64,000 bases of DNA from Bacilli bacterium (GCA_031549195.1 JAVBQF010000005.1:13462-77461); one strand, 5' to 3'; counted from the stretch's first letter, positions 9,999-29,032 are shown. The notes: a model not told the origin generated them from the sequence alone. A program made the numbers and translations.

Positions 9999-10001
9999 AA
10001 T

Positions 10002-10952: not shown

Positions 10953-10958
10953 AAACTT

Positions 10959-12263
10959 CTACTCCTTATCAAATTTCTCTAATTCTTTTACCACTGTATA
11001 TCCAAGTTTAATAGCATAATTTAAACCTCTATCCTCAGGATATATTTGAGGCATAGATGCATTAAATATATTCTCTTTTTCTATTTTTAAACTTGGCAAT
11101 ATTTTAGAATAGTTTTTTGTTATTATAGGTTGTGCATAATTTTCTGTAAACAATTCTATTCTAATAACATCTTTTTCAGAAAATTCTTTATTTATTTTCT
11201 TTAACATAGGTAGGTAAATTTTAAATAATTCCTCTTTATTCTTTTTAAAAAGTGGATCGCCATGAAACATATAATTAGATATATATAAAATATTTTCATT
11301 ATTGTACTTACTTTTGTCAATAAAATTAGTGTGCTCAATTAACCCACCGAATGGTATTTTTTTATCCCCATTATTCAACCAGTAAAATGGCATAAAGCTC
11401 TTTTTCATAAAAAGAATCATAACTTTAGCACCAGTATATTTTATTAAGGATAGATTATGTTTTTCTTTTTTAGTTAAAAATGGATTAGCAAAATCTTGAA
11501 AGTATGGATAAGCCACTGTTGACACTACAAAATCAAAGTCTTTATACTTCTTTTTTGATGCTACTATCGTATATTTACCATCTTCTTTTTTAACTTTATC
11601 TACTTTATTACCACAATTGATTTTTACTTTTCTTTTTTTTAAGTCTTTTTCTAAATAATCAGTTAAAACTTGGTAGCTTCCATCAAGATACCCTAATGAT
11701 TCCCCGTCTTTTTCGTTTGAAGATCCTCTTAAAACAATCTTCCCCCACATCCAAGTCATAGAAACATCTTTATAAGAATTACCAAATTTTGAAATTAAAA
11801 GGGGCTCCCAAATCTTTTCATAAGCATTCTTCCCAGCTACTTTCATTAGCCATTCATGTGCTGATATATTCTCAAGTTTTCTATAGTCCTTTATTGTTTT
11901 AAGTCTAAGTATACTTAATCCAAATCTAAACTTATCAATCAGGTTAAGTGGTTTAAATTTTAAAAGTGATATCGGTGTACCAAATTCATAAATCTTACCA
12001 TCTGTAAAATAGCCCATTTTTGTTTTTGGCCATAGCATCTCCTTTTCAATACCAAACTCTTTCATTAAACCTAAAACATAACTATCACTTTTGAATATGT
12101 GTCTGTAATAGTTTTCTAACTTATCTCCATCGGTTTTAAAAGTAGCAGTCATTCCACCAATAGAATCCATACTTTCAAATACTGTTACATCATATTTTAA
12201 ACTCAATTCTCTTGCTGCAATTATTCCTGTATACCCTGATCCAATTATTGCTATTTTTTTCAT
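10959..12263 (-). CDS. FAD/NAD(P)-binding oxidoreductase (amine oxidase/phytoene desaturase-like fold)
   Basis: N-terminal Rossmann motif KIAIIGSGYTGIIAARELS...VTVFE...GGM. Confidence 0.7.
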   Translation of the reverse strand: MKKIAIIGSGYTGIIAARELSLKYDVTVFESMDSIGGMTATFKTDGDKLENYYRHIFKSDSYVLGLMKEFGIEKEMLWPKTKMGYFTDGKIYEFGTPISLLKFKPLNLIDKFRFGLSILRLKTIKDYRKLENISAHEWLMKVAGKNAYEKIWEPLLISKFGNSYKDVSMTWMWGKIVLRGSSNEKDGESLGYLDGSYQVLTDYLEKDLKKRKVKINCGNKVDKVKKEDGKYTIVASKKKYKDFDFVVSTVAYPYFQDFANPFLTKKEKHNLSLIKYTGAKVMILFMKKSFMPFYWLNNGDKKIPFGGLIEHTNFIDKSKYNNENILYISNYMFHGDPLFKKNKEELFKIYLPMLKKINKEFSEKDVIRIELFTENYAQPIITKNYSKILPSLKIEKENIFNASMPQIYPEDRGLNYAIKLGYTVVKELEKFDKE

Positions 12264-12290
12264 TTTATTACTCCTCTTTATACAATTGCC

Positions 12291-13799
12291 TTAAATTAAC
12301 TTATATAATAAAAATCCATCACTATCCATAATAAATTTATAATTATTTTCTAATATTTCCATCATTTTCCGTATAACATATCCTTCACTTTCAATTACTT
12401 CAATATTTAAAAATATATACTTTGGCTTTTCCCTATTTATATCTTCAATATATTCATGTGCTATTTTATTATCAACTTCACTAATAGGAAATTGATAAAA
12501 ATATTTCGATGCTGATAAAGAATTAGATACTAAGTATATCCTTGAAAAGTTACCAACAACTGTAATCTTATCAGTAATCAAAACTTCTTTTTCAATATAA
12601 TAAGAAATATCTTTTATAGTATTTTTACATTGAGTACTAAATATTTGTCTTTGGAGTATTTTATAAATTGCATTATAGTCACTCTTAAATGCATAAATAT
12701 AAAATGCCGACGAAATTATTAAAATAGAAGCAACAACTAATTTCCTGTTTTTAATAAACTTTTCTACTATACTTTCGAAAAAATCAAAAGACATACCTAC
12801 AAATATTGATAAAGGTGGAATAAGAACCAATGCATAATGCAGATAAATTCTTCCTGATAACGATAATAAGTAATATGATAAAAATAAATATAGAATACTT
12901 ATAATCAAAAACAAGCGATACTTCCTTTTGCTAGAAATAAATAAGATAGATAATGCAAAGATTGAAACTTTTAATAGATTATTTTTTATAAAAAATTGAA
13001 ATGCTGTTATTTTTTCTAAATAATTAACAGAAATATATGAAAAGTTAAAAACAAAATAACTGTCAAAAAATGGCTGTAATGTATTGGTAAGTAAAAAGAA
13101 AATTACAAATGGTAAAATCACACTAAAAAAGCCTATTCCCATTAAAACTAATGATTTAAATGATTCTTTGAAACCTTTTTCACAGAATATTTTTATGATC
13201 ACTGCAGGAACAAATACAATCCATAAAGCTATCATATTCTGCCTTAAGAAAAATACAGTTGCACAACAAATCCCTATTAATATATTACCAAAACCATTTA
13301 TTCTCTCATTTTTTATAAAATATTTTGTAAAAATATATAATGATATAAACATAAAAGGCAATGCATATTCTTCTACAAGATTTCCACCTTCTAATAATTT
13401 AATTATACTACTATAAGCTATAATTGAAGAAGCAATTGAGACTGTCTTACTAGCAAAAAGTCTTATCATTTTATAACAAAATATTATGCCAACCATAAAA
13501 AATACAGTTTCAATTATATATATTCCAAGTTCATTTGGAACAAAAGAACCAATATAATTTATAAGGTATATAATAGGTCCTTTATGATCAAATAAATCGC
13601 GATAAGGTAATAAACCATTACCCAGTTGTTTACCTATATACATGAAAACCGAACTATCTGTAAACATACATATAGGATTAAAAGGTGAAAAAGTACTGCT
13701 AATTAAAAGAATACCAGATACTATAAAAAAGATAATGTATTGAAAATAATTAATTATGGCTTTTTTCATATTATTTAAGGCATTCACTACTTCACTCAC
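12291..13799 (-). CDS. Polytopic membrane glycosyltransferase, GT-C fold (PMT/ArnT-like)
   Basis: About 12 TM helices; first extracytoplasmic loop carries DSSVFMYIGKQLGNGLLPYRDLFDHKGP motif typical of GT39/GT83-type lipid-linked sugar transferases. Completes GtrA/GtrB/GT-C trio. Confidence 0.6.
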   Translation of the reverse strand: MSEVVNALNNMKKAIINYFQYIIFFIVSGILLISSTFSPFNPICMFTDSSVFMYIGKQLGNGLLPYRDLFDHKGPIIYLINYIGSFVPNELGIYIIETVFFMVGIIFCYKMIRLFASKTVSIASSIIAYSSIIKLLEGGNLVEEYALPFMFISLYIFTKYFIKNERINGFGNILIGICCATVFFLRQNMIALWIVFVPAVIIKIFCEKGFKESFKSLVLMGIGFFSVILPFVIFFLLTNTLQPFFDSYFVFNFSYISVNYLEKITAFQFFIKNNLLKVSIFALSILFISSKRKYRLFLIISILYLFLSYYLLSLSGRIYLHYALVLIPPLSIFVGMSFDFFESIVEKFIKNRKLVVASILIISSAFYIYAFKSDYNAIYKILQRQIFSTQCKNTIKDISYYIEKEVLITDKITVVGNFSRIYLVSNSLSASKYFYQFPISEVDNKIAHEYIEDINREKPKYIFLNIEVIESEGYVIRKMMEILENNYKFIMDSDGFLLYKLI

Positions 13800-15755: not shown

Positions 15756-16427
15756 TTAGCACGCTATTTTACTATTTAGCGTAGCTAATACTTTTGTTTC
15801 TCTTCTTGATACTTGTACTTGCGTCATCTTAAGTACTTTTCCTGTTTCACTTTGTGACATATCATTATAGAACCTTGACGTTATTAATAACCTATCTTGC
15901 TCTGGCAATTCCCCTATAGCCATTCTGAGTGCTGCAATATCATCATTATACCCTGGCTCTATATATGGAATTTGATCATGTAAACTTATTTCTTTTTCAC
16001 CAGTACTATCAGCTTCTTGATCAAGACTCATAACAAAGTCAGTTGCTATTTTAGCATCAACTAGCCTTTCTTCTGGAACTTCTAAATAACAAGCAAGTTC
16101 AAATGTCGTTGGTGGTCTTTGTAACTTTTGCGTAATCATATCCGCAACCTGATCTGCTTTTCTATTTAATGTTATTAATTTTCTATCAATCTTTATTAGA
16201 TTATTATCTCTTAAATATTTAAAAATAGAACCCGTTATAAAAGTATCTGCATACGTTAAAAAGGTATTCCCTTGGTTCTGATCAAATCCTTTACAAGCAT
16301 TAACAAGCCCAAGCATTCCTTGTTGATATAAATCATCTACATCTGCTATACGTGCATATTTTTGTGCTTTACTATATACATATCTCCCATATTTTTCTAC
16401 TAATTCTTCTTTATTCAATGTTTCCAT
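15756..16427 (-). CDS. sigF: Sporulation sigma factor, SigF-like (group 3 sigma-70)
   Basis: Region 2 DDLYQQGMLGLVNACKGFDQNQGNTFLTYADTFITGSIFKYLRD, region 4 HTH SQSETGKVLKMTQVQVSRRE; directly downstream of spoIIAA-like gene and upstream of spoVA genes. Confidence 0.75.
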   Translation of the reverse strand: METLNKEELVEKYGRYVYSKAQKYARIADVDDLYQQGMLGLVNACKGFDQNQGNTFLTYADTFITGSIFKYLRDNNLIKIDRKLITLNRKADQVADMITQKLQRPPTTFELACYLEVPEERLVDAKIATDFVMSLDQEADSTGEKEISLHDQIPYIEPGYNDDIAALRMAIGELPEQDRLLITSRFYNDMSQSETGKVLKMTQVQVSRRETKVLATLNSKIAC

Positions 16428-16438
16428 ATTATGCTCCT

Positions 16439-16783
16439 TTAAATATTAACTATATTAAATACACTTATTTCATTATTTGTTTCATAAATATCAGTTGTTA
16501 AATTACTACTCTCTATTTTTAATCTGACAATTTCACTAAATCCACATATAAATACTTTTCCATCATTATCCATTAACTTTTTACACTTCTCATTAATAAC
16601 TTCTATTCCACTATTATCTATTGAATAAAGCTTTTCACAATTAATAAGCAAATACTTTATACCAGCTTTAGAAATAATCTTTTCTAAAGTAGCATTCAAC
16701 TCATTACTAGTTTTTTCATTTAATATTCCTTTTAATCTAACAAAAAGAATTCCTCTTTTATATTCAATATCTATATTTAACAC
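16439..16783 (-). CDS. spoIIAA: Anti-sigma-F factor antagonist SpoIIAA (STAS domain)
   Basis: 114-aa STAS protein with phosphorylatable-serine motif YSIDNSGIEVI (cf. DSSGLGVI of B. subtilis SpoIIAA). Confidence 0.75.
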   Translation of the reverse strand: MLNIDIEYKRGILFVRLKGILNEKTSNELNATLEKIISKAGIKYLLINCEKLYSIDNSGIEVINEKCKKLMDNDGKVFICGFSEIVRLKIESSNLTTDIYETNNEISVFNIVNI

Positions 16784-16941
16784 TTATAGATTCACCTCGC
16801 ATATTCAATATAGAGCATATTTTATACATTTTATACAGATTCGACAAAAGTAGATTTTTTTTTGATATTACATTATTCGACAAATATGTTCTCTTAATAT
16901 TATGATAGAACTTATTTTGTCAATTTCCTCAAACAAAAAGG

Positions 16942-17469
16942 CTAAATTACATCGCCTTTTAACAAGTCACCAAAAGTTTTAAAGAAATACGAAATAAATC
17001 CTTGCTTTTCTACATCAGTATCTACTATTAACTCTATTTCCTTTAATGTTTTGTCTTTATATTTTATGATTAATTTACCTACTGCATCACCTTTATTTAA
17101 AGGTAATTTAATATCTTTATCTAATGATACTTCTTTAGTATATTCTACACTTACTTCTGATTTCTTACTTATTATTGTTACATCTTCTTTAGGATAAACA
17201 TTTACTTTACTGACACTCGATTTATTTAATTCTATTGTATCTATTACATCTGTCTTTTTATGTATAAGGGTAGACTTATATAAATTAAATCCATAGTCTA
17301 AAAGTGCTGTTGTCTCTTCATTTCTCACCTTACTTACAGCTTCGCCTAATACGATTGCTACAAGCCTTAAGTTATCCCTTTTAGCAGTTACAGACATACA
17401 ATATTTAGCTGCATCTGTAAATCCAGTTTTAAGTCCATCAGCACCCTCATAAAAACGTACTAGTTTGAT
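16942..17469 (-). pseudogene. dacF: dacF-like D-alanyl-D-alanine carboxypeptidase, C-terminal fragment (KTG motif plus PBP5 C-terminal domain) separated from its 5' half by the inserted element
   Basis: In-frame translation upstream of ORF-track Met reads ...LVRFYEGADGLKTGFTDAAKYCMSVTAKRDNLRLVAIVLG (KTG box); no SxxK/SxN part and no start/signal peptide here; the matching N-terminal half lies at 28331..28978. Confidence 0.7.
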
Positions 17470-17546
17470 TGTATGTTAATATTGCAATAACGAAAAATAC
17501 AAGTATTTATAAGGGTATTATAGAGGAAACAGAGATAAAAATCAAA

Positions 17547-20096
17547 TCAATTTTTAACTTTATATTCAGTAGTGAAATTTGTAATTATCATATCTCCTTG
17601 TAATTTAAACTGATTTAATAGTCTGTCCATTTCTATAACTTGTTTATAAAAATTAGGATCTGCAACATTTTCAGCAAAGTTAGAGATTGCACCTCTAAGT
17701 TTTTCAAGTAAATCTGGAGTCATGATGCGTATTTTAGGATTTGGAGAACAAGCGTGTTCAAATATATGACTATTATGTATCATCACGGGATAATAAGTAA
17801 ATTCGTTGCCTTCATATTCATTTTCAAACCAAGTAGCTGAACCATTCAATTGATTACAATCATGTTTATTAATTGTGTCTGTAGTAGTACCATTCTTACA
17901 CTCAATGACAAAATAAATACCATTTCCAATAACCCAAAGATTATCGGGACCTTTTCCATTGTCTGCTTCCGGACGAGATGAAGTTATTCCTAACATATGC
18001 GAAATATCTTTCAAAGAACTTTCAAAAGTTTCTGCTGTATCCACTGAAAATTCCAATTTTTCCAATAAGGTATTGGCTTTCAAAATATAAGAATTGGAAT
18101 CTAAATTGTTATCATTAATATAGTCTATTATTTTCTGTGCTTGCGTACCAGCTTTTTCAATAAGACGCTGATGTCTAATACCATCTAGTGGGCGAATTAT
18201 ATTTCTATTATATTGCTGTGCTGATAAAAGAATTTGCTGTGCCTCACCTTGATTTGAAAAGTTTGTATACTCAGCCAAAACTTGCATCAAAAATCCTTTT
18301 GTACTTTCGTCAGAAATAGTGTTTTTTGCTTTTTCTATAATTTTTGCTGCCTGAGAATATTGAAAAACTTCTGCACTTTCAAATGCCTCTCGCAAAGCAA
18401 CTGAAATATCATCTATTTGAGGACTTCTTTCATATGATAAAGAAGATAATGCATCTCTACTTGCTTTTATCCAATCAACGTTTCTTGGTAAATTTAGTGA
18501 ATAATTTGTTAAAGAAAATATCTCATCTATGCTAGGGTTAGGATTTCCCATTCGTAATTGATCCCATAATTGCTGAGACAATTCAAATTGTGCAAGCGTT
18601 GCTTTACTAAAATATTCTTTTCCATCCCCACGTATAAGAATATCTTTTAATCCTTTCCCCATAAACACAGCGACACAGTAATCATTATTGGAGCGAACTC
18701 CTCGACCGATACCCTGTTCAATTTTTTGAATTTTATCACTCAACAATCTTTTGTTATTTGGATTGATACCCAGCATTATCGCATCATATTTATTGGCAGT
18801 ATTAGCTACACCATCAATTACAAGAATACGACATGCATCATCTGGCAAATCTATTCCATCATATTTGTTTATTAAAACTACTAATCCAACATGCTCATTT
18901 TTAAGTTGGCTAACACCATTATCTATATTCAAATAATCTAAAGTTAAATCTGAAACATCACTCCAAAAAGCAGCTCTATTTCTAGACGGAACGATAACAA
19001 CAACATTATGAAGTAATGAAAGACTTTTTAATTTTAATTTAATTTCCACATCATTGATTCTTTTATTTATTACTTGAGGGAAAATTAATAAGCGATCTCC
19101 AATATCATTTGCTTTTTCAGGTGTAATTATATTTGTTATTTCGCTCTGTCTTAATCCCATTGCCGTAACAAAAACACTATCATCAGCCAAAGTTGCACTC
19201 ATAAATATTCTACGTTGTGCCTGTTCAAAACTTTTAATTTTTGATATCGGTATGCAATTAGGAGTAATTTCTATGCAACGAGCAGAAACTACACAGTTAC
19301 ACAACGATAAACAATCTTTTATTAAGGGTAGTTTAAACTTGATAAAATCCTTATCACTGTGCTTGTGTAAAATATCTCCAACTTCAGATACTTTATTTTG
19401 CCATACATAAAAAGGAATAAGCATATTAGTGAACGGGTCATGTATCTCTGAAATTTCTTGATATTTTTGATTTGAATATGATTTTAATGCTGTTGAAAAA
19501 ATAGACATTATTGAAGAATATACTTCTTCATCCTCTATAGGAATAGTTATCGTAAACTGATCACCAATAGTTTCTAAACATGCATGAGCATCATCTATCA
19601 AAATGCTACCAATATTAATATTATTATTATCTGAGCGCATACCAAAGACACTCTTACCATTAACTAGTTTATGAATATTGATTACAAGAATAGCTTGTTT
19701 TCTCATAAAGGGATAGTCTTCTTCATCTTGAACTACTTTGATACCTAATTTCTCTGCTTCACTACATACTTGCTGTACAAGATAATTATCTGGGACAACA
19801 TAAACTGCTGGGCCTTTTCCCTCATCAATACAACTTTTTAATATAGTAAGTCCTACAACTGTTTTACCACTTCCAGTATTCATTTTAATAATCGTATTTT
19901 TCTGTTCTCTACTTTCAAACCAAAGTTTCCAAACTTCACTTTGCACATCTCGTGGATATTCATAACTTTTATTCTTCGTTGGCAGTGACATAAAAATATC
20001 ACGTGGTTCTATACTTGATGGTGTTTTTTCAACACCCAATTTGCTAAAATCAATCATCACTTGTTCCTCCATAATATTTAACAAAAAAGATATCAT
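17547..20096 (-). CDS. SF2 DEAH-box helicase with C-terminal VRR-NUC (PD-(D/E)xK) nuclease domain, phage-type
   Basis: Walker A MNTGSGKTVVG, motif II ILIDDAHA, motif VI QGIGRGVRS; C-terminal GKGPDNLWVIGNGIYFVIECKNGTTT matches VRR-NUC G-PD...ExK. Confidence 0.75.
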   Translation of the reverse strand: MISFLLNIMEEQVMIDFSKLGVEKTPSSIEPRDIFMSLPTKNKSYEYPRDVQSEVWKLWFESREQKNTIIKMNTGSGKTVVGLTILKSCIDEGKGPAVYVVPDNYLVQQVCSEAEKLGIKVVQDEEDYPFMRKQAILVINIHKLVNGKSVFGMRSDNNNINIGSILIDDAHACLETIGDQFTITIPIEDEEVYSSIMSIFSTALKSYSNQKYQEISEIHDPFTNMLIPFYVWQNKVSEVGDILHKHSDKDFIKFKLPLIKDCLSLCNCVVSARCIEITPNCIPISKIKSFEQAQRRIFMSATLADDSVFVTAMGLRQSEITNIITPEKANDIGDRLLIFPQVINKRINDVEIKLKLKSLSLLHNVVVIVPSRNRAAFWSDVSDLTLDYLNIDNGVSQLKNEHVGLVVLINKYDGIDLPDDACRILVIDGVANTANKYDAIMLGINPNNKRLLSDKIQKIEQGIGRGVRSNNDYCVAVFMGKGLKDILIRGDGKEYFSKATLAQFELSQQLWDQLRMGNPNPSIDEIFSLTNYSLNLPRNVDWIKASRDALSSLSYERSPQIDDISVALREAFESAEVFQYSQAAKIIEKAKNTISDESTKGFLMQVLAEYTNFSNQGEAQQILLSAQQYNRNIIRPLDGIRHQRLIEKAGTQAQKIIDYINDNNLDSNSYILKANTLLEKLEFSVDTAETFESSLKDISHMLGITSSRPEADNGKGPDNLWVIGNGIYFVIECKNGTTTDTINKHDCNQLNGSATWFENEYEGNEFTYYPVMIHNSHIFEHACSPNPKIRIMTPDLLEKLRGAISNFAENVADPNFYKQVIEMDRLLNQFKLQGDMIITNFTTEYKVKN

Positions 20097-20120
20097 AATT
20101 TTAATGATATCTGAACTAGT

Positions 20121-20648
20121 TTAATTATAGCACATTCTTAGCTTTTTCTCCAGCTTATTTTGACATTTTGATACATTTCCTTGCTTACATCCTAATTCCT
20201 CTGCAAGTACCACCTGAGTCTTCTTATTACACCCTATTCCATATAAGTTTTTAATTAGATAACCATCTTCTTTATTAAGTACATTATCTAATAAATATTT
20301 AAGATAATTTAATTGTTCATCTAATATTATTTTTTCTAATATATCAGGTTTATTACTTTCTATAATATCTTCGATAGTTATGCCTTCTCCTATTTCAGTA
20401 CTTAAAGAAATACATATTAGTTTTGATTTCTTTAAAGTATGTAGTATTTGATTTCTAATACAAGTATAAGCATATGTAGAAAAAGATACATTCTTATCTT
20501 CTTTGAATGTATCTACTGCATTAATTAATCCTATTACTCCTTCATTGGTTAAATCTTCATAATCATTAGAATTAATTTTTATATTTAATTTCTTTAATAC
20601 AAAATAAACTAGAGATAAGTTATTTAAAATAATTTCATCTCTAGTCAT
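20121..20648 (-). CDS. Sigma-70 family sigma factor (phage/element-encoded, 175 aa)
   Basis: Region 2 NEGVIGLINAVDTFKEDKNVSFSTYAYTCIRNQI; region 4 HTH KKTQVVLAEELGCKQGNVSKCQNKLEKKLR. Confidence 0.7.
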   Translation of the reverse strand: MTRDEIILNNLSLVYFVLKKLNIKINSNDYEDLTNEGVIGLINAVDTFKEDKNVSFSTYAYTCIRNQILHTLKKSKLICISLSTEIGEGITIEDIIESNKPDILEKIILDEQLNYLKYLLDNVLNKEDGYLIKNLYGIGCNKKTQVVLAEELGCKQGNVSKCQNKLEKKLRMCYN

Positions 20649-21141
20649 TAGATTCTCCTATACAGGAATGAATAAATTTCTTCATCTCTTCTTGTTCTTC
20701 TAAAGTAGCGTTTTTGCTTTCACACCTAACTCCATTCCAAAGCATTACTCCATCAGTATCATAATCGATTATTTTATTATTTATATTATTTTTATAGTTA
20801 TTATTATGTCTATCTCTTGGAATAACCTTTTTATTATCTCTAGGAATAATATTACTATATTCCTTTGACCATACATCATCATTTAAAAAGATATACCTTT
20901 TACTTCTATTAGGTATATCTTTCTCATATTTAACATTTATTAATTTTAAATCTTTTAACTTTTTAATTGCTACTGATATAGCATTATTTTTAACACCATA
21001 CATATTAGCAAAATAGCTGTTAGTAGCATAGCAACATTTATTTATGTGACATAAAGCTGTTATTCTTTCAAAGATTAATTTATCTAGGAAAGATAATTCT
21101 TTAGTCTTATATACTTTTTCATCTACAATAGTGTAAATCAT
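20641..21141 (-). CDS. Winged-helix/HTH protein, phage replisome-organizer (DnaD-like N-terminal) type
   Basis: LSFLDKLIFERITALCHINKCCYATNSYFANMYGVKNNAISVAIKKLKDLKLI resembles N-terminal HTH of phage replication organiser proteins; overlaps sigma-factor start by 8 nt (operon). Confidence 0.5.
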   Translation of the reverse strand: MIYTIVDEKVYKTKELSFLDKLIFERITALCHINKCCYATNSYFANMYGVKNNAISVAIKKLKDLKLINVKYEKDIPNRSKRYIFLNDDVWSKEYSNIIPRDNKKVIPRDRHNNNYKNNINNKIIDYDTDGVMLWNGVRCESKNATLEEQEEMKKFIHSCIGESND

Positions 21142-21173
21142 TATATATTTAGTAATAATAAACTCCTAGATAG

Positions 21174-21344
21174 TTATTCATTAGAAAAGTCCTTATCTTT
21201 ATAACTATCATATTTTAATTTAGTAATATAACCTATCTCTAATAATTCAATCATTATTTTAGATATTGGTTTATTGTAAAACTTAGCCATTAGTTTTATT
21301 CTTTCAAATAATTCTAATCTAAGCCAAAATTCAAATCTCTTCAT
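21174..21344 (-). CDS. Small (56 aa) putative ribbon-helix-helix/regulatory protein
   Basis: ATG preceded by AAGGAGGAG RBS; MKRFEFWLRLELFERIKLMAKFYNKPISKIMIELLEIGYI... ; not in ORF track (below length cutoff). First ORF after the long leader. Confidence 0.4.
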   Translation of the reverse strand: MKRFEFWLRLELFERIKLMAKFYNKPISKIMIELLEIGYITKLKYDSYKDKDFSNE

Positions 21345-21817
21345 TTAACTCCTCCTTCTATTATGGACAATTATTTACTTTATTTTAGCAATATTTATAA
21401 AAGCAGGATAAGATGATTACGTAACTCTACTGATTATTACCTTATTTCATGAGAAATCAGCTTACGTAATTTCTTATTTTGCACTTGCAAAATTGTCCAT
21501 ATTGTTTGTTTTTTTTATCCATGATTTGAAACATTCCCTTGATTTAAAAGGAAATATAAGCTTTATAATTATCCATTCTAATATCCATAAACATACTTAC
21601 AATTAAAAAAGTATGGATATTTTCATTCATAACGATCACCTCCTAAAATACAAAATAATTTCATGAAAAAAGTGACCACTTCATTTAGTAATCACTTCAA
21701 CTTATAACTATTTCTATTATATCAAGCATAGCACCCCGCAATAGTTCATGCAACGCCTATTGCACTACGAATGCACTACTAATATGTATCTATATAAGTA
21801 CTATTTCGTGTGATACT

Positions 21818-21846
21818 ATATTATACTTATCACCGGTTCTTTTCAA
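21818..21846 (-). promoter_or_regulatory. Sigma-A-type promoter (TTGAAA-17nt-TAATAT) reading leftward into a ~470-nt leader
   Basis: Minus strand reads TTGAAAagaaccggtgataagtaTAATAT with exact 17-nt spacer; followed by GC-rich hairpins, an 8-codon uORF with perfect RBS, and two TTACGTAA palindromes before the RHH-like gene. Confidence 0.5.
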
Positions 21847-21883
21847 GCGCATTTCGGTTTTATTTGGCATGAATTCGGTTTAT

Positions 21884-22687
21884 TTAATTATTATTTGTAT
21901 ATTTACTTAATATTATATCTTTTTCATTTTTCAAATTTTCTATTTCTGAGTTTCTAAATGCACTTAGCAATAGTACAAAAATAAGATCCATCATTTCTAA
22001 TCTATCCTTATCTTTTAGATTATTGTATCTTAAGTCAGTTCTTTTCTTCTCATTGTGTCGAAATAAATTGTTTGAGATTTCTCCAATCAAATTACTGAGA
22101 TCTTTAGATACATTCCCCCTAATACTTTCAAACTTTTTATATATTAAAAATAATATTTTTTCTTTTTCTACAATATTAGTGCTAATTTTAAAGTCACAGT
22201 ACTCGATTAATAATTTTCCTGTATTTTCTGGGACAGTTTTCAACGTTGCATCAAGGTCAGCATTTTTTCTAATAAACACATAACCATCTTGATCAGTATT
22301 TGCTTTTGTTTCATATCCCATTTTTGAAAGAATGAAATGTATGTTATCAATTATTAATGTTTCTACTTTTTTTAATTCAGTGCTTATAGGGTAAAGTTTG
22401 TTAAGTTTATTATGAAAAATTATTATATTGAAGAGAAATTCCATTGTAAGCAAAGCTCTGTTCTCATTAGTCTTACTATATTTTTCTATCTTATCTTGAA
22501 ATTCCTTGCAATTTATGCATCCACATCGGTATTGCCACGAGCTAAAGCAAGTATAATCAATTTGTTCTGATGGTGATCCATAAGCCTGAACTCCTGCTAC
22601 ACCATTTATATAGAAAATTTCGTATAATTTCATTATTTCTTCATCCAAGTCAATATCCTTTGTATATAATTCAAAAATATTTTTCAT
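21884..22687 (-). CDS. Hypothetical protein (267 aa), possibly Abi-like
   Basis: Clean ORF, Cys cluster FSSWQYRCGCINCKEF near N-terminus; no assignable family. Confidence 0.5.
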   Translation of the reverse strand: MKNIFELYTKDIDLDEEIMKLYEIFYINGVAGVQAYGSPSEQIDYTCFSSWQYRCGCINCKEFQDKIEKYSKTNENRALLTMEFLFNIIIFHNKLNKLYPISTELKKVETLIIDNIHFILSKMGYETKANTDQDGYVFIRKNADLDATLKTVPENTGKLLIEYCDFKISTNIVEKEKILFLIYKKFESIRGNVSKDLSNLIGEISNNLFRHNEKKRTDLRYNNLKDKDRLEMMDLIFVLLLSAFRNSEIENLKNEKDIILSKYTNNN

Positions 22688-22782
22688 TTTTCCATCACCG
22701 CTTCCTTTAATAATTAATTTATTTTACTTACAATAATTACATCAGATTTAATTTCCATTCTATTTCATATAATTACTATTTT

Positions 22783-24654
22783 TTATCTACTACATCTTGA
22801 TTTAAAATATTTTTGAAGGTTTTTATCTTCACACCAAATATAGCAACCCTTCATTCCTCTAGTCATCAAAGTACGATATGTGTTTTTAATTATTAAGTCA
22901 GCTTGTTTTTGAGCTTCTATAGGATTTTCAGCCATTAATTTATTAATCCCTTTTAATGATTGATCTGTTTTAGCTCTTTTTGTATAATCAGTTACAATTT
23001 GTCCATTTTCATATCTTATATCTTTTCCAATTATAACCCCAACATAATCAAATTCTAAACCTTGACAAGTATGTATGCAACCCGCTTCATTAACTGAATT
23101 AGCATCTATTGCCCATGTTTGAGAATTACCTAAATTCCAGCTCATATTAAAGTCATATTCAGGAATAGTAATATCGTAAATTTCAGATTTGTTTTTTCCT
23201 TCACTTATCCAGTTCCAGCAATAACCAGCAACAACCCTAGATTTATTATTTATTCTATTTTTTTCTACTATTTGGTTTCTCAGTTCACATGGACTATCAA
23301 TTACTTTAAAATCATAATCATAGTCCATATCATCGAAATTAGCAGTATTTCTAATATCAAGCATTTGATCTAACCATGCTAGATATCCATCTGATCCATT
23401 ACATCTAAATTGGCTCTCTAAATCTACTATTTTTATGCCTGCTCCTAATTCATTAGCATATTTTTTTATTAGATCTACTGTTCCGACATCTTTCAAGGTT
23501 ACTTTTTGATTCTCATCAATAAAGAAAACTGAAAAGTTAGAGGCTTTAATTATTTCCTTAACTTGATTCTCTCCTAAATTTGAAAACAGTCCAGATTTAG
23601 CATTTAATCTATGGGCTTCATCTACAATCAAACAATTAATTTCATTGTTATCAGATTCAGTAAATGACCCTGATCCTTGAAATAGATTATTTATATATGT
23701 CATTTTAAATGTTCCTTTTAGCTTGTCTCTAAATACTGCTCTTGGAGCGCTATTTTTTGTGACATAAAAACTTGTCATGTTTCTTTTAGTAAATTCTACT
23801 AACAAATTTATAGCTAAAACAGATTTCCCTGTTCCAGGACCACCTTGAACAATAAATACTGTTTTATCATCTGCTGCAATAGTATCTATTGCTAATCTAA
23901 TTGCATCTTCATAAATAACTTTTTGTTCATCAATCATATTAAACTCTTTGCTTCCTTTTAACATCATTGATAAAGAGTCTTGAAGTCTCTTAGATGGTCT
24001 TATTCTTCCATTTTCAATTTTATATAAAAGTTCTCTATCATCACCTTCGAAAATATATCTTTTAATAAAAATTCTTAATTTATCAAAATCATTAGTACCA
24101 AATAATGGTGCAGCATCTATATACTCTTTATACTGCTCACTATTTATTGGATCACTTTCTTGTAAGTCATAATTATGTAGAAATGCACATGGATATAAGC
24201 CTATTTCTTCTAGCTGTACAGTTTCATTAAAATCTCGTATTAAATTAGCATAGCTCATTGCTTGATATGAAGGATGTGCAACTTCTCTTATTCCGTGGCC
24301 TGTATAAGTTGATACAATTCCATCTTTACCATCTACCGCTGTACACGTTTCCCATTGTTTTAGTTCAACAATAATTACTGAATCTTTTTTATTTTTATCC
24401 TTACCAGATAATATAAAGTCTATTCTTTTTGATGTTGTAGGAATATTAAATTCTATTGCAACTCCACAATTACCAGGTATTTCTCCATCATCTAAGACAC
24501 CTCTCATATATTGCATAGAATTCTTCCACGAATTTAATTGAGATTCACTTGTTTTTCCAAAAAAATGTTTATATTTATCATAAATCTTGTTAACAATCAA
24601 ATTTAAATTTACATCATTAATAAACTCAGATTTAATTCCTTCATATACTAGCAT
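22783..24654 (-). CDS. DUF2075/Schlafen-like nuclease-ATPase: N-terminal PD-(D/E)xK (Mrr-cat-like) domain fused to SF1-like P-loop helicase core (Nhi-like architecture)
   Basis: N-terminal DSVIIVELKQWE (D...ExK); Walker A FIVQGGPGTGKSVLA; Walker B CLIVDEAHRL; C-terminal VVAGYCWNW region typical of DUF2075 proteins. Confidence 0.7.
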   Translation of the reverse strand: MLVYEGIKSEFINDVNLNLIVNKIYDKYKHFFGKTSESQLNSWKNSMQYMRGVLDDGEIPGNCGVAIEFNIPTTSKRIDFILSGKDKNKKDSVIIVELKQWETCTAVDGKDGIVSTYTGHGIREVAHPSYQAMSYANLIRDFNETVQLEEIGLYPCAFLHNYDLQESDPINSEQYKEYIDAAPLFGTNDFDKLRIFIKRYIFEGDDRELLYKIENGRIRPSKRLQDSLSMMLKGSKEFNMIDEQKVIYEDAIRLAIDTIAADDKTVFIVQGGPGTGKSVLAINLLVEFTKRNMTSFYVTKNSAPRAVFRDKLKGTFKMTYINNLFQGSGSFTESDNNEINCLIVDEAHRLNAKSGLFSNLGENQVKEIIKASNFSVFFIDENQKVTLKDVGTVDLIKKYANELGAGIKIVDLESQFRCNGSDGYLAWLDQMLDIRNTANFDDMDYDYDFKVIDSPCELRNQIVEKNRINNKSRVVAGYCWNWISEGKNKSEIYDITIPEYDFNMSWNLGNSQTWAIDANSVNEAGCIHTCQGLEFDYVGVIIGKDIRYENGQIVTDYTKRAKTDQSLKGINKLMAENPIEAQKQADLIIKNTYRTLMTRGMKGCYIWCEDKNLQKYFKSRCSR

Positions 24655-24658
24655 AAAT

Positions 24659-24982
24659 TTACTCCTCTTCTAGTTTATTGTATTTTGTACTTTTCCCTTT
24701 CGACTTGTCTATGGGGTATTTCAATCTAGTTTTTTCTAGTTTTTCTAAAACAATATCTTCTAAATTAACATTTAATTTATTTGCAAGCAATATACAATAA
24801 TTAAGAACATCAGCTAATTCTTCGCAAACTTCATTATGGTCAAATTCAGAATTCCACTGAAAGCACTCCAATAGTTCTCCAGCTTCGATTGAAATTGATT
24901 TAGCTAGATTCTCTGCACTATGAAATTGATCCCAATCACGTTCTTGATTAAATTTAATTATTTCTTCTTTAACCTTATCCAT
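24659..24982 (-). CDS. MazG-like nucleoside triphosphate pyrophosphohydrolase (small all-alpha NTP-PPase)
   Basis: FNQERDWDQFHSAENLAKSISIEAGELLECFQW with downstream EELADVLNYCILLAN match MazG/HisE-type EExxE...D motifs; likely start at MDKVKEE (24982). Confidence 0.7.
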   Translation of the reverse strand: MDKVKEEIIKFNQERDWDQFHSAENLAKSISIEAGELLECFQWNSEFDHNEVCEELADVLNYCILLANKLNVNLEDIVLEKLEKTRLKYPIDKSKGKSTKYNKLEEE

Positions 24983-25090
24983 ACTACAAACATCCTCCAA
25001 TAATACTTTAATTATATCACAAAACCAGTCATTATCTCGACAAATAACGACCAATATTTATTTTTAATATCAAAAAAATCACTATTTTTA

Positions 25091-25297
25091 TTAAACGGTG
25101 ATTTTGTTATTTTTTTCTTTAATGTATTTATTATTATAATTACTTTTATCTGCAAAATATTCACATTTATTTGTTTCATTATCATAATTAGTTTTCATAA
25201 AATAAGATTGTAATTTTGCTGATTTTGCAACGTATCTAATACAGTTCCTTTTTAAAGGGCACTCTTCTCCTAAGCACATTGTTATATCTAAATCCAT
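25091..25297 (-). CDS. Small Cys-rich (zinc-ribbon-like) protein, 68 aa
   Basis: MCLGEECPLKRNCIRY...NKCEYF four-Cys arrangement; tightly packed between fic and mazG-like genes. Confidence 0.4.
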   Translation of the reverse strand: MDLDITMCLGEECPLKRNCIRYVAKSAKLQSYFMKTNYDNETNKCEYFADKSNYNNKYIKEKNNKITV

Positions 25298-25313
25298 ACT
25301 ACTCCTCTTATTT

Positions 25314-26159
25314 TTAATCTATATTAGAATCTTCAATGACTAAATCATTATTACTCAATTTATTTATTCCATTATTAAGTAGGTTCTCAAAAAATTTTAT
25401 TAAATATTCGTTTGTTTGATATATATTTTTAGACCTATTAGAATAATTACTTCTAACTAAAGCATTTCTAAAATATAAGGAATGTTCTTTAAATAAATCA
25501 TTGTTAACATTATATCCAAGACTTCTTAAATATTTTTCTATCATAACTGCAACAGTTCTAGTATTCCCTTCTCCAAAAGGATGAACTTGCCAAATACTTG
25601 AAGTAAATATCGCAATATGTTCTATTTGTTCTTGTATAGTTAATTTAGAATAATCATATCCCATTTCTTGCTTAAAATCATATTCATAGGTTCTTTCAAT
25701 TTCATTATAATCCGCATAAACAACTGTATCATTTTGTAATATAGGTTCATCTTTTGTAATATTATAAGTTCTATACTTTCCTGCAAAATCATAAATACCT
25801 TTGAATAAGTATTCATGTATTGATTGCAATGTTATTGGCCTTAATGAAAAGCTATTATCATTTAATAATTCAACTATTCTAGTTGAAACTAAATCACATT
25901 CTTGTTCATTAGCTATTTTTATATCACTTAAGTCTTTAGTTTTATAATAACTATGAAGAGACTCCTCTACTTCATAGTTAGTTATTTCGCCCTCCACGTT
26001 TTTATTAACTAATTCTTTTAGATAATTAGAAGGAGTCAAACCATCGACTTGTTGTAATCCAATTGCCATATTCCAATATAATTGTTTCACATAGCTATCT
26101 TTTGTTTCATCAATCTTTTTATATTCAATCTCATCGTTCATCTTAATTACTCCTTTCAT
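25314..26159 (-). CDS. Fic/Doc family protein (AMPylation/adenylyltransferase fold)
   Basis: Canonical Fic motif HPFGEGNTRTVAV (HxFx(D/E)GNGRxxR). Confidence 0.8.
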   Translation of the reverse strand: MKGVIKMNDEIEYKKIDETKDSYVKQLYWNMAIGLQQVDGLTPSNYLKELVNKNVEGEITNYEVEESLHSYYKTKDLSDIKIANEQECDLVSTRIVELLNDNSFSLRPITLQSIHEYLFKGIYDFAGKYRTYNITKDEPILQNDTVVYADYNEIERTYEYDFKQEMGYDYSKLTIQEQIEHIAIFTSSIWQVHPFGEGNTRTVAVMIEKYLRSLGYNVNNDLFKEHSLYFRNALVRSNYSNRSKNIYQTNEYLIKFFENLLNNGINKLSNNDLVIEDSNID

Positions 26160-26273
26160 AAGTTATATATATTATATCATTTTTAAAGCAATAAATATAC
26201 TTTATACATCGAATTAAGTATCAAAAAAGTCACGACTTTCGTGACTTAAATTCGATTTATTAGATAAATACTT

Positions 26274-26591
26274 TTATATTATGATTGGTAATACGTTTAA
26301 TGCTGTCAATAGTAGCATTAGTAAATACATTACTCCTAGTGTTACCATATAAATAAAGAAATAAATTATAGAACCTAAAGTTGGATTGCTTCCTCTATCA
26401 TAAAACTTTCCAGTTATAAAATAACTAATAGCCCATAATATAGAATATAATGATACTACTTCCAAAAGAATATTATTATAAATTGGATTCTTTAATATCG
26501 GAATATTATCAATAGTGCAATAACACAAATAAGCTCTTATTAAAAAACTAATTCCGCTAACGATTGGATACATAATTACCAGACCTCCCAT
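26274..26591 (-). CDS. Small membrane protein (3 TM), hypothetical
   Basis: 105-aa hydrophobic ORF directly downstream of recombinase gene. Confidence 0.35.
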   Translation of the reverse strand: MGGLVIMYPIVSGISFLIRAYLCYCTIDNIPILKNPIYNNILLEVVSLYSILWAISYFITGKFYDRGSNPTLGSIIYFFIYMVTLGVMYLLMLLLTALNVLPIII

Positions 26592-26636
26592 TTAGTTAAT
26601 TATTATATCATAAAACTAAAGGAATCTAGCCGTTTT

Positions 26637-28079
26637 TTAAAATTCTAGCTTAGTAATTACTACTTCATTACCTTCTTTTTTTACGCTTATTACTTTAACA
26701 AATCTTTCTAAAAAGTTCTTCTTTTCTTTATTAGTTAAATATTGCCAATTAAGTTTAATACTATTAACTATACCTGATATATCTTCTAATTCTATTGATT
26801 CTTCAATAGGCTCTTCTATAGTATTTATTTCATTTAATATTTTTTCTTTTTTATCGTTAAGCTCTTTAAGTAATAATTGATATTCATCTACTGGTAATTG
26901 ATCACTCATAAATAGATTTCTAGTCTCATTCTTTTTATTTTCTATTCTATTTAATTCTCTATTTAATTTATCTTTTATTTGTTTAATGTCAATTACTTCT
27001 TTAGATTTTAGTTCTATATCTTTTAAATCTACTTTAAAGTTTTCTATATTATCTAGATATTTTAGAAATACTTCTTCTAATTTATTGTGTGAAAATCCAG
27101 GTGCTTTGCATGTACCATTATAATGGCCATTACAAGCGTATGTGATGTACTTCTTGCCCTTTTGTATTTGCTGTCTCGCATGATACTTAGAACCACATAT
27201 ATCACACCTTAGACTATGAAAGAAGTATGTATCATCGCTAGAATATTTTTTAGTATGAAATTGTTTTCTTTTCTTTAACATATCCTGGGCATTATTCCAT
27301 AAATCAAGTTCTAATATTGATTCTATGTTTTTACCAACAGTCTCAAATTTTTTTAATTTATTATTACTATTTACTGCATATCTAACATTACCAATATAAA
27401 GAGGATTAGTTAAAATACTTCTAATAGTAGATTGACTCCATTTCCCACCTCTTTTAGTTGGTGTTTTATTTTTGTTTAATTCCTTACAAATAGATAGCAT
27501 AGAATCTCCATTTAAATAAGATTCATAAATATCTTTTACAATTATCTTTTCTTCTTCATTAACTTCTAACCCTTGTCCTATTATGTAGTTATATCCATAC
27601 ACTCCATTGGTATTTGTATAATTACCTTCTCTTGTTTTTTGTTCATAGCCAAATGCTACTCTTTCTGCTAAATTCTCTCTTTCAAATTCTGCGAATATTC
27701 CTAGCATTTTTACAAACATTCTTCCTACTGCATTCGTAGTATCAATTTTCTCTGTTTGTGAGTTAAATGAGCAATTATGACTTTCAAATAGATTAATTAA
27801 ATTAATTAAGTCTGCAACACTTCTTGTTAGTCTATCTAGTTTATAAACTAATATATTTCTAATCTTACCAGCTTTAACATCATTAATTAATCTATTCACT
27901 TCTGGCCTATCTTTAGTATTCTTTCCACTTATACCATCATCAATATAATAATCATGTATATCCCAGTCATTTAATTCAGCATATTTAGTTAGTTTTTCTT
28001 TTTGAGCATTAATAGAAAATCCTTCTTTAGCTTGATCTTCAGTTGATACTCTCATGTATATCGCGGTAGCTGTATTCAT
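26637..28079 (-). CDS. Large serine recombinase (resolvase/invertase catalytic domain plus recombinase and zinc-ribbon domains; SpoIVCA/CisA/phage-integrase type)
   Basis: N-terminal AIYMRVSTEDQAKEGFSINAQ (catalytic Ser), DRLTRS motif, central recombinase domain, Cys-rich zinc ribbon CDICGSKYH...CNGHYNGTC, C-terminal coiled coil. Confidence 0.9.
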   Translation of the reverse strand: MNTATAIYMRVSTEDQAKEGFSINAQKEKLTKYAELNDWDIHDYYIDDGISGKNTKDRPEVNRLINDVKAGKIRNILVYKLDRLTRSVADLINLINLFESHNCSFNSQTEKIDTTNAVGRMFVKMLGIFAEFERENLAERVAFGYEQKTREGNYTNTNGVYGYNYIIGQGLEVNEEEKIIVKDIYESYLNGDSMLSICKELNKNKTPTKRGGKWSQSTIRSILTNPLYIGNVRYAVNSNNKLKKFETVGKNIESILELDLWNNAQDMLKKRKQFHTKKYSSDDTYFFHSLRCDICGSKYHARQQIQKGKKYITYACNGHYNGTCKAPGFSHNKLEEVFLKYLDNIENFKVDLKDIELKSKEVIDIKQIKDKLNRELNRIENKKNETRNLFMSDQLPVDEYQLLLKELNDKKEKILNEINTIEEPIEESIELEDISGIVNSIKLNWQYLTNKEKKNFLERFVKVISVKKEGNEVVITKLEF

Positions 28080-28330
28080 AGTAAGTCCTCCTATTTATCT
28101 ATTAAATAGTTGTACTTCTTTCTTTTAATATTCTTGGAACACTGGTATTCATAAAAAATTTCATAATTTCTATTTGTAGTTCTTTTGGTAGTTTAATCTT
28201 CATAAACATTCCTCCATTCACTACATTATAGAAGTTTTAAAATTAAATATTCCTCCTTTTTCTTTGTTCCAAAAATACAACACCCGTTTATAACCTTATT
28301 TTATAATGGTTTACAGGCGTTATTGTAATA

Positions 28331-28978
28331 TTAATATACGACTTTATTGGTATTAACAAGCCAAAACTTATTTGGAGTATCTGTTCTTAAATAGTCTTCA
28401 TAGACAGATGAGAACTTTAATATATCTTCATGCTTTAATAATTCTTTTGCAATCATTGCTACATCGTATGCAGTTGAATAATGACTATCTTCATCTAAAC
28501 CGGTACTATTTTTAAACACGGTGTTTTTTAAACCCAATTCTTTTACTTTATCGTTCATTAACTTAACAAAGTTATCTTCACTACCTCCAATACGTTCTGC
28601 TAAAGCAACAGCTGCATCATTAGCACTGGCCATAGAAAGCCCCTTAAACAGATCTCTTACTGTCATAACTTCACCTGGCTGTAACCATATTTGGGTCCCA
28701 CCCATGTCAGCAGCCTTCTTACTTGCAGTTACCTTTTCTTCCCACGACAATGTACCATCTTCTATATGCTCTAAAATTATTATTTGCCCCATCATTTTAG
28801 TTAGTGACGCTATTGCAACTTTTTCATGTATATTTTTCTCATATAAAATATCTCCAGTCGATGCCTCAATTAGTATTCCACTTTTAGCATTCTTAATTAC
28901 ATCTTCTTCAGCATAAACATTAGGAATGATAAGAACAAACAACAGAAATGCTAACAATAACTTTTTCATAAAATTCAC
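28331..28978 (-). pseudogene. dacF: dacF-like D-alanyl-D-alanine carboxypeptidase, N-terminal fragment (signal peptide, SxxK, SxN) ending at element junction
   Basis: Signal peptide MNFMKKLLLAFLLFVLIIPNVYA, active-site ASLTKMM (SxxK) and SANDAA (SxN); frame terminates at ...FWLVNTNKVVY* with no KTG box; remainder found at 16942..17469. Confidence 0.7.
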
Positions 28979-29032
28979 CTCACTAATAAATATGACAATT
29001 TTTGCATATATATTATTAAATTAGGTGATCAT

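Follow-up and report, generated by a model that had tools for sequence, protein, structure and literature searches.

Elements of a large serine recombinase clade split a dacF-like carboxypeptidase gene in uncultured gut Bacilli and may be excised at sporulation

Why is a D,D-carboxypeptidase gene that lies beside sporulation genes found in two halves, and might it be put together again when the cell forms a spore? The question is raised by a stretch of 64,000 nucleotides from a Bacilli bacterium (GCA_031549195.1, JAVBQF010000005.1:13462-77461), here called the window, in which a dacF-like gene is interrupted by an element carrying the gene of a large serine recombinase (LSR). An earlier note, made from the sequence alone, had proposed that dacF is split by about 10.9 kb of foreign DNA with the recombinase at its edge, beside the 5' half, and this is borne out by the ends of the element, the domains of the recombinase and the collinear rebuild of the gene. 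That an LSR has integrated a site-specific element into the dacF-like gene we regard as practically certain. The wider reading, that this is a skin-like intervening element whose excision is linked to sporulation, is favoured only tentatively, since taken as a whole we believe it with slightly less conviction than we doubt it.

The minus-strand open reading frame (ORF) 28978..28331 encodes a signal peptide, SLTK (the SxxK motif) and SAN (SxN), and ends with ...FWLVNTNK, after which VVY and a stop codon are read in foreign DNA. The earlier note was right about this terminal peptide but placed the end of the gene half at 28331, which is the end of the read-through stop codon, whereas the last host base is 28343. 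Similarly, the gene does resume near the position of about 17469 given there, the exact base being 17463, where the frame is picked up with LVRFYEGADGLKTGFT... (CTA GTA CGT = LVR, then FYEGADGLKTG...) and runs to a stop at 16942. Joined in silico, the halves give one collinear protein of 382-385 amino acids (aa), depending on the start codon, with an unbroken Peptidase_S11 match over the joint (residues 30-253, E 9e-76) plus PBP5_C. The fused protein is covered to 99% by intact homologues of 383 aa, with a best identity of 66%, and aligns to solved D,D-carboxypeptidases as a single stretch (28-365). It carries SxxK, SxN, KTG and the PBP5 C-terminal domain, as an S11 peptidase of this type should, and the intact relatives, for which the earlier note had suggested a search, have ...PNKFWLVNTNKLVRFYEGADGLKTGFT, the same amino acids as the rebuilt joint. 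Judging from these alignments, a collinear rebuild by chance is excluded. In the window and in three sister loci (L101, L102 with its three pieces, and L118) all gene pieces are open frames in which the catalytic motifs (SxxK, SxN, KTG) are kept.

The ends of the element are likewise well defined. On the minus strand, attL has the sequence ...GTTAATACCAATAAA/GTCGTATATTAATATTACAATAACG and attR the sequence CGTTATTGCAATATTAACATACAATCAAA/CTAGTACGTTTT..., with AA(A) common to both junctions (the slash marks the junction). The element arms are terminal inverted repeats of 22 nt that are 91% complementary (inverted-repeat pair I19). The rebuilt attP, ...TTGCAATATTAACATACAATCAAA/GTCGTATATTAATATTACAA..., is an imperfect palindrome of about 50 bp, and the rebuilt attB, ...GTTAATACCAATAAA/CTAGTACGTTTT..., lies within the dacF-like gene. 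Because of this short, imperfectly palindromic attP, its central dinucleotide and the shared AA(A), we read the junctions as the product of an attP x attB reaction of a serine integrase, for which short att sites, a palindromic attP and a shared 2-bp crossover are characteristic. The LSR would have joined the ~50-bp attP to attB with AA as the crossover, between the NTNK and LVRFY codons. No compositional contrast marks the element, which has a GC content of 27.3% against 27.9-29.8% in the flanks. The element arm of attL (28262..28330, minus strand) has a predicted fold as a long hairpin with UAUUUUU behind it, at a z-score of just -1.8, and the terminator scan called no terminator between the dacF promoter and the LSR; judged by its fold, the hairpin could hold back transcription that runs on from the dacF promoter through to the recombinase unit.

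The recombinase, correctly recognised in the earlier note, has all three domains of its family, Resolvase (PF00239, residues 6-153, E 5.5e-43), Recombinase (PF07508, E 1.3e-21) and the zinc ribbon (PF13408, E 2.9e-8), and its nucleophile stands in the context R-x-S-T/S-x-x-Q. The heptad-rich residues 345-430 probably form a coiled coil. Among solved structures it comes closest to the TP901-1 integrase catalytic domain and to SprA, at ~50 bits. Every sub-family checked has, immediately before the LSR, a micro-ORF of 33-35 aa with the motif (I/L)(Q/E)(I/L/M)E(I/M)MKFFxxTS(V/I)PRI(L/I). It was found in 24 loci of the clade, in 22 by regular-expression search and in L116/L117 by the called gene and its translation, and the regular-expression search of the loci gave no copy outside the clade of the window LSR. 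Of the codon changes between its window and L101 copies, counted by hand, 8 are synonymous and 6 are not; as synonymous changes prevail, the micro-ORF looks like a constrained coding gene. It matches a PHROG whose function is not known. Since it is placed like sprB in the attL-rdf-int unit of SPbeta and like skr, which overlaps spoIVCA in skin (PMC6957869), its product is a candidate recombination directionality factor. The promoter-like motif of this unit is kept in the sister elements as (T)GGAATA-N17-TATAAT, or as TGCATA-N18-TATACT in two sub-families.

Is the window element a single odd insertion? It is not, but one member of a very large and horizontally mobile LSR clade dedicated to the NTNK site. 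Public metagenomes hold more than 120 relatives of the LSR at 54-79% identity (90% clusters) and 569 at E <= 1e-60. We read the surroundings of LSRs 56, 61, 75 and 76% identical to that of the window, of the cluster representative P0163 (~60%) and of LSRs reached from two split N-half clusters, the sister elements being read over their first 10 kb. In all 14 distinct host contexts with an LSR at least 56% identical (the window, L006-L012, L101, L102, L103, L114, L116 and L121), the LSR lies just after a DacF N-half ending in NTNK, followed by a spacer of ~150-300 bp with the micro-ORF and then by the LSR. The boundary between host and element falls at the identical nucleotide, AAYAAA/GTCGT..., or AATAA/GATTGT in L101. 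A recombinase is present at every related split locus, so that the same split without a recombinase, which the earlier note had named as a finding against its proposal, did not occur. By comparison, an S11 gene stands beside the LSR in 0 of the 87 fetched loci whose LSR is at most 46% identical (L014-L100). That an integrase clade has integrated repeatedly and independently at one position is a mark of regulated gene integrity (RGI; PMC7192596), and the clade seen here has done so at the same codon in 14 host contexts. The clade was not found above 46% identity in IMG/VR, 36% in INPHARED and 36% in PLSDB. Both gene halves lie in one contig in the window (element of 10,879 bp), in L102 (6,963 bp) and in L101 (2,889 bp); the right ends of the L006, L011 and L103 elements were not found within 10 kb of the LSR. 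The smallest of them, the L101 mini-element (9744..12632), consists of the micro-ORF, an LSR 76% identical to that of the window, a Fic gene and nothing more, and has an intact dacF half on either side, in a dacF/STAS/sigF-like/spoVA synteny shared with the window.

How common are split alleles? Counting 90% protein clusters rather than genomes, at least 74 of the 120 clusters nearest the N-half of the L103 host end within a few codons past NTNK, with tails (e.g. VVY...) that are the translated element arm GTCGTATAT, and only 13 of the 120 read through into LV(K/R)FY. The L103 host species is represented by more than 300 contigs in all, and its split N-half occurs on more than 200 contigs, while a set of 5.8 billion proteins contained no uninterrupted allele of this species. 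The only proteins of this species that cross the NTNK joint have 321 and 274 aa and are both truncated at the N-terminus: the 321-aa form lies behind a 563-aa LSR inserted directly after SMTK(IM) (L111-L113) and the 274-aa form behind an LSR of 557 aa that has entered after SAND(A) (L118/L119). Three different LSR elements therefore occupy three sites (SxxK, SxN and NTNK) in one host species, and all three sites fall in stretches of the dacF-like gene that code for catalytic motifs. In L102 and L008 an element sits at the SxN site as well, so that dacF is split twice there. Since the LSRs of the SxxK and SxN sites are 42-51% identical to each other and only ~26% identical to the window clade, two LSR lineages have reached three sites of one gene. 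Members of the second lineage, of 544-563 aa, were seen in L102 (1096..9499), L008 (7744..9429), L118/L119 (66..10056) and L111-L113.

The elements also move between hosts. One type (L006-L010 and L012) shows 95-100% DNA identity over the 2.2-2.5 kb common to all pairs, falling to 78% in longer pairwise comparisons, and is found in seven hosts whose DacF N-halves are 44-74% identical to that of the window and widely different among themselves; near-identical DNA in such divergent hosts indicates recent horizontal spread. The hosts of L101 and L102 are closely related (SpoVAD 86%, SigF-like protein 90%, host proteins overall 78-90% identical), whereas their LSRs are 74% identical, no closer to each other than either is to the window LSR, which argues that elements are exchanged and not strictly co-inherited. 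Strict co-divergence of element and host was rejected on both grounds. Cargo differs wholly among the elements: all have the micro-ORF and the LSR, and the HTH_36 protein and the sigma factor are met repeatedly. Resistance- and stress-type cargo was noticed in L120 (3857..6038), L011 (13812..18406), L103 (13371..14816) and L118 (5035..6087); the types met in sister elements are a GNAT acetyltransferase with an ABC-F-like double-ABC protein, a two-component system with an ABC transporter, a RelA/SpoT-like protein and an APH-type kinase.

The 12 ORFs of the window element are listed in Table 1 with the other features; as the earlier note had stated, every credible ORF between the gene halves is on the minus strand. 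In the window element and in the first 10 kb of its sisters, PHROGs matches are confined to integrase, replication-initiator-like, sigma, helicase and unknown families, and capsid, tail, terminase and lysis genes are absent. A prophage was rejected on the lack of structural genes and of a close LSR in the viral sets named above. An integrative conjugative element was set aside because relaxase, coupling protein and type IV secretion genes were not found among the 12 ORFs, and the low identity in PLSDB gave no support to a plasmid origin. The two candidate defence proteins named by PADLOC, PDC-S28 and PDC-S72, are full-length matches to models without a described mechanism, and from its gene content the element resembles a small integrative island whose cargo is candidate anti-phage genes. 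The HTH_36 match of the initiator-like protein is weak (Pfam E 8.5e-4; best PHROG replication-initiator match E 1e-10); the iteron-like gap upstream of its gene may, from its repeats, be a replication origin, and a Rfam scan of the element including this gap gave zero matches. The best NCBIfam matches of the element sigma factor are SigK and SigE models, yet they score far below the cut-off, so the likeness to these sporulation factors is merely generic. Such a sigma gene recurs in L102 (15287..15805), L103 (12525..13055) and L120 (3007..3537).

Table 1. Features of the split dacF-like gene, the integrated element and the adjoining genes (positions in the window).
Feature	Position	Strand	Remarks
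Integrated element	17464..28342	-	10,879 bp; genes all co-oriented with dacF
attL	28318..28360	-	host arm ...CTTGTTAATACCAATAAA + element arm GTCGTATATTAATATTACAATAACG; junction 28343/28342
attR	17445..17492	-	element arm CGTTATTGCAATATTAACATACAATCAAA + host arm CTAGTACGTTTTTATGAGGG; junction 17464/17463
Host-gene promoter-like motif (putative)	28986..29015	-	TAATA-N16-CATATTTAT; ~10 nt upstream of the ribosome-binding site (RBS)
dacF-like 5' part	28343..28969	-	MKKLLL...FWLVNTNK, 209 codons; SxxK + SxN; likely start ATG 28969 behind GAGGTG
Promoter-like motif of the recombinase unit	28225..28253	-	GGAATA-N17-TATAAT; upstream of micro-ORF + LSR
Micro-ORF	28102..28203	-	33 aa (MKIKLPKELQIEIMKFFMNTSVPRILKERSTTI); directly upstream of LSR
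LSR	26637..28079	-	480 aa; Resolvase + Recombinase + Zn_ribbon_recom; catalytic Ser12 in YMRVSTEDQ; coiled-coil-rich C-terminus (predicted)
Small membrane protein	26274..26591	-	105 aa; no family match
Intrinsic-terminator-like hairpin	26227..26247	-	closes the micro-ORF/LSR/membrane-protein unit
Fic-domain protein	25314..26159	-	281 aa; PADLOC candidate PDC-S72, E 2.5e-91
Cys-rich protein	25091..25297	-	68 aa; function not known
MazG-like nucleotide pyrophosphohydrolase	24659..25054	-	
Schlafen-group-3/DUF2075-type helicase	22783..24654	-	623 aa; weak matches to defence models PDC-S41, AbiO, Nhi
267-aa protein	21884..22687	-	no family match
Non-coding gap, ~540 bp	21345..21883	.	iteron-like repeats AACCGA/G x3, GTAGTGCA x2; locally higher GC; upstream of initiator-like gene
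56-aa ORF	21174..21344	-	no family match
HTH_36/DnaD-like replication-initiator-like protein	20641..21141	-	166 aa; backbone gene; 48% identical copy in L103
Sigma-70-family factor	20121..20648	-	175 aa; backbone gene; 54% identical in L102, 37% in L103
ResIII/DEAD helicase-like protein	17547..20096	-	849 aa; full-length match to PADLOC candidate PDC-S28, E 7e-298
dacF-like 3' part	16942..17463	-	begins LVRFYEGADGLKTG..., runs to stop; KTG box + PBP5_C domain
STAS/SpoIIAA-like gene	16439..16783	-	next after the dacF-like gene
SigF-like sigma gene	15756..16427	-	follows the STAS gene

Is the host gene a dacF, and is it a sporulation gene? NCBIfam holds no DacF-specific model by which orthology could be called against DacA or DacB, and among solved structures the rebuilt protein scores best with 4k91 (187 bits), B. 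subtilis DacB (3mfd) being fourth (164 bits). The name is therefore given for the position directly upstream of a spoIIA-type operon, which is found in the window, L101 and L102 and not in the distant hosts L002, L103 and L118. As the earlier note had pointed out, STAS (SpoIIAA-like) and SigF-like genes lie directly downstream of the 3' half, and spoVAC/AD/AE come after the SigF-like gene in the same order in all three loci. Two perfect TGTCGAA Spo0A boxes upstream of the STAS gene (~16845..16880, minus strand), kept in L101 and L102, make a sporulation programme likely together with spoVAC/AD/AE. The anti-sigma kinase gene spoIIAB is missing between the STAS and SigF-like genes in the window (15756..16783), L101 (13315..14340) and L102 (17375..18455), and the SigF-like factor scores well under the SigF and SigG equivalog cut-offs. 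The adjacent VanY-like gene had been thought possibly to compensate for a lost DacF; this idea was rejected, as the gene is a conserved divergent neighbour also where dacF is intact (L002-L005); the best-scoring assignment for its product is an LdcB-type L,D-carboxypeptidase.

The compartment of expression matters for what follows. The spoVA genes are sigmaG-dependent in model species, and in these genomes the spoVAC promoter reads GTATA-N18-(A)ACA(A/C)TA, unlike that of the dacF-like gene. There a CATA-type -10 motif lies ~10 nt upstream of the RBS in 10 of the 10 hosts where it could be placed (11 were examined; L012 was the host where it could not be placed), and an xAATA/xCATA motif 15-16 nt further upstream accompanies it in 9 of these 10, L103 lacking it. 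Mother-cell sigma factors share a CATA -10, and sigmaE uses ATA at -35 (PMC3789822); B. subtilis dacB is expressed in the mother cell (PMC517825). Since TAATA-N16-CATA differs from the spoVAC promoter and fits a sigmaE type, the dacF-like gene may be mother-cell expressed, which we offer as a lead drawn from short AT-rich motifs. The statement of the earlier note that dacF is classically a forespore gene holds for C. difficile and B. subtilis (PMC3738446, PMC3789822) and is not secure here, where the promoter is unlike the sigmaG-type promoter of spoVAC.

As long as the element is integrated, the gene is interrupted before its KTG box and would yield no active enzyme. According to the reading that we favour, the LSR, probably with the 33-aa product of the micro-ORF as directionality factor, would excise the element during sporulation in the terminal cell, which would regain its carboxypeptidase gene while the spore genome would retain the element. 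Serine-recombinase exchange is conservative, so that excision would restore the reading frame exactly. Sporulation-linked excision is favoured because uninterrupted alleles are a minority and are unseen in one well-sampled species, because every gene piece read is open and has its motif, because the 2.9-kb remnant retains exactly the recombination unit, and because the layout is that of proven intervening elements; the link of the host gene to sporulation is suggested by the synteny with spoIIA-type and spoVA genes and by the CATA-type promoter. A degraded yet recombinase-retaining state, which the L101 mini-element resembles, is typical of domesticated intervening elements (PMC7192596).

Several points weigh against this reading. 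No excision product was observed: no attB allele of the window species was found in the 5.8-billion-protein set, where the best intact homologue is 66% identical, and an attP pattern search of IMG/VR for the excised circle gave nothing. The promoter of the recombinase unit has a sigmaA-like TATAAT and is not a clean fit to any sporulation sigma consensus. The mobility of the elements is evident, and intact gene halves could therefore merely reflect recent insertion; LSR divergence does not follow host divergence. The B. subtilis dacF single mutant is nearly silent, with no strong phenotype, so a plain knock-out of dacF may be tolerated. The promoter call for the host gene depends on short AT-rich motifs. 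In C. difficile and B. subtilis dacF is a sigmaF/sigmaG-dependent forespore gene (PMC3738446, PMC3789822), and if that were so here, excision in the mother cell would be of no use.

In the main rival reading, the clade would simply land in a conserved stretch of a dispensable dacF and inactivate it, the gene being unneeded or replaced by another carboxypeptidase, and excision serving the transfer of the element alone. We consider this a serious possibility, although we would rather doubt it than accept it. The weak phenotype of the B. subtilis mutant would fit it, as would the recent spread of one element through seven divergent hosts, LSR divergence out of step with that of the hosts, the sigmaA-like promoter, and an accessory cargo of candidate defence genes here and of ABC-F, GNAT, APH and two-component/ABC modules in the sisters; convergence of diverse LSRs on one conserved gene site is, moreover, a general habit of these enzymes as described by Durrant et al. 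2022 (PMC10083194). However, a gene that is dead in most lineages, and in each genome sampled from one species, should commonly decay, and all pieces read are open with SxxK, SxN and KTG kept. In L101 and L102, both split, the DacF pieces are 80-90% identical, like their SpoVA and SigF-like proteins, and the reduction of the mini-element to the recombination unit and Fic suggests selection for excision and not for mobility.

Improbable in our view is a reversible switch, in which the element would leave in the forespore or the vegetative cell, persist as a replicating circle by means of the DnaD/HTH_36-type initiator-like gene and the iteron-like region, and re-integrate later, turning dacF on and off without loss of the element as in the active lysogeny of phi10403S at comK. 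In its favour, LSR integration requires no accessory factor; the initiator-like gene and the sigma factor belong to the backbone of the family, an iteron-like non-coding region precedes the former, and dacF is a forespore gene in model species (PMC3738446, PMC3789822). Yet no circular form or attP junction was found in IMG/VR, the HTH_36 match is weak, the mini-element keeps the same arrangement without an initiator-like gene, and the host-gene promoter is unlike the neighbouring sigmaG-type promoter. An assembly or binning artefact, or a decayed pair of pseudogenes from two paralogues, might be imagined for a metagenome-derived source in which many sister contigs break within the element, but it is refuted to the point of having practically no chance, since independent assemblies of different studies and hosts agree on the junction to the base, both halves align in order to single intact homologues, and whole elements with both halves lie inside single contigs (window, L101, L102 and L118).

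Returning to sporulation-linked excision, its boldest form would be that throughout a clade of uncultured Bacilli from the gut a fragmented dacF-like gene is the normal state and programmed LSR excision makes it whole at sporulation, and that, if the gene is forespore-expressed, excision takes place in the germ line, with a circle that replicates by means of the initiator-like gene and with re-integration at germination. We think this unlikely; if true, the germ line would undergo a reversible rearrangement, in contrast to every known mother-cell-only case.

The published intervening elements of sporulation genes that we found concern sigK, spsM, spoVFB, spoVR, gerE, kamA and yabG, almost all in cultured Bacillus and Clostridium (PMC6957869, PMC10747680), and almost all interrupt mother-cell genes according to reviews (PMC6957869). 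The impression of the earlier note that dacF is undescribed as a host agrees with our literature search, in which neither a paper nor a supplement of a regulated-gene-integrity survey naming dacF, an S11 peptidase or PBP5 as an LSR target was found. The dacF-like gene may well be a new example of a gene that DNA excision puts together again, unusual in the prevalence of its elements, their three alternative sites and their hosts. The target is a cell-wall (cortex-type) carboxypeptidase gene in abundant uncultured Bacilli of the human and animal gut; split alleles outnumber intact ones, and LSRs of two lineages have come to use the same gene at three catalytic-motif sites. Should excision be developmental, no case of RGI in spore formers would be more widespread, and the carriage of defence and resistance cargo would be tied to spore formation and gut transmission. 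If the gene is only knocked out, the whole clade would be using as its landing pad a conserved sporulation gene that its hosts can do without. Either way, the clade is a source of many natural LSR/attB/attP sets and of a possible 33-aa directionality factor, all of them potential tools.

Among known systems, the recombinase beside the 5' gene half recalls skin in sigK, as the earlier note had remarked, and the order of 5' gene half, small ORF and co-oriented LSR matches skin, yin and the attL-rdf-int unit of SPbeta (PMC6957869, PMC10747680). Like skin (B. subtilis SpoIVCA/Skr; C. difficile CD1231/CD1234), the dacF element is an LSR element within a sporulation-linked coding sequence, with the recombinase beside the 5' gene half, a small ORF just upstream (skr/spoIVCA in skin) and a frame that precise excision restores, or here would restore. 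The skin family includes small degraded versions and different elements at different sigK sites in different hosts (PMC6957869, PMC5025042), and the dacF elements also show a degraded small form and different sites of one gene. Skin differs in that its target is a sigma factor gene and not a D,D-carboxypeptidase gene, and the dacF LSR is only distantly related; the dacF element has no phage genes, its hosts are uncultured gut Bacilli, and its excision at sporulation is a presumption. SPbeta in spsM, phi3T in kamA and yin in yabG carry the attL-rdf-int...attR unit and are both mobile and developmentally excised (PMC4191935, PMC6957869, PMC10747680). They share with the dacF elements a recombination unit inside a sporulation gene and horizontal mobility, but are prophages or prophage-like, whereas the dacF element lacks capsid, tail and lysis genes.

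Gin in gerE of B. cereus ATCC 10987 (GirC/GirX) is a non-prophage element with an LSR, a small accessory factor and restriction-modification cargo (PMC5595907), and resembles the dacF element as a non-prophage intervening element with an LSR, a small, here candidate, factor and defence-type cargo. It differs in having 28.6 kb and three recombinases and in being found in few Bacillus strains, while the dacF family has one LSR, spans 2.9 to more than 11 kb and occurs in dozens of species. The Listeria phages phi10403S and A118 at comK, full prophages with a phagosome-triggered active lysogeny, likewise carry an LSR, split a gene and can allow its restoration by excision without loss; here there is neither a full prophage nor a phagosome trigger, and reversibility would be purely hypothetical. 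Finally, the main text of Durrant et al. 2022 describes LSR clades that converge on one attB in conserved coding sequence across species, for example in comM/Mg-chelatase or a prolyl isomerase, and does not name an S11 carboxypeptidase gene as a target (PMC10083194). The likeness lies in many diverged LSRs at a single conserved gene site; compared with the clades treated in that text, the dacF-like gene stands apart in being reached by two LSR lineages at three sites, with its uninterrupted alleles in the minority.

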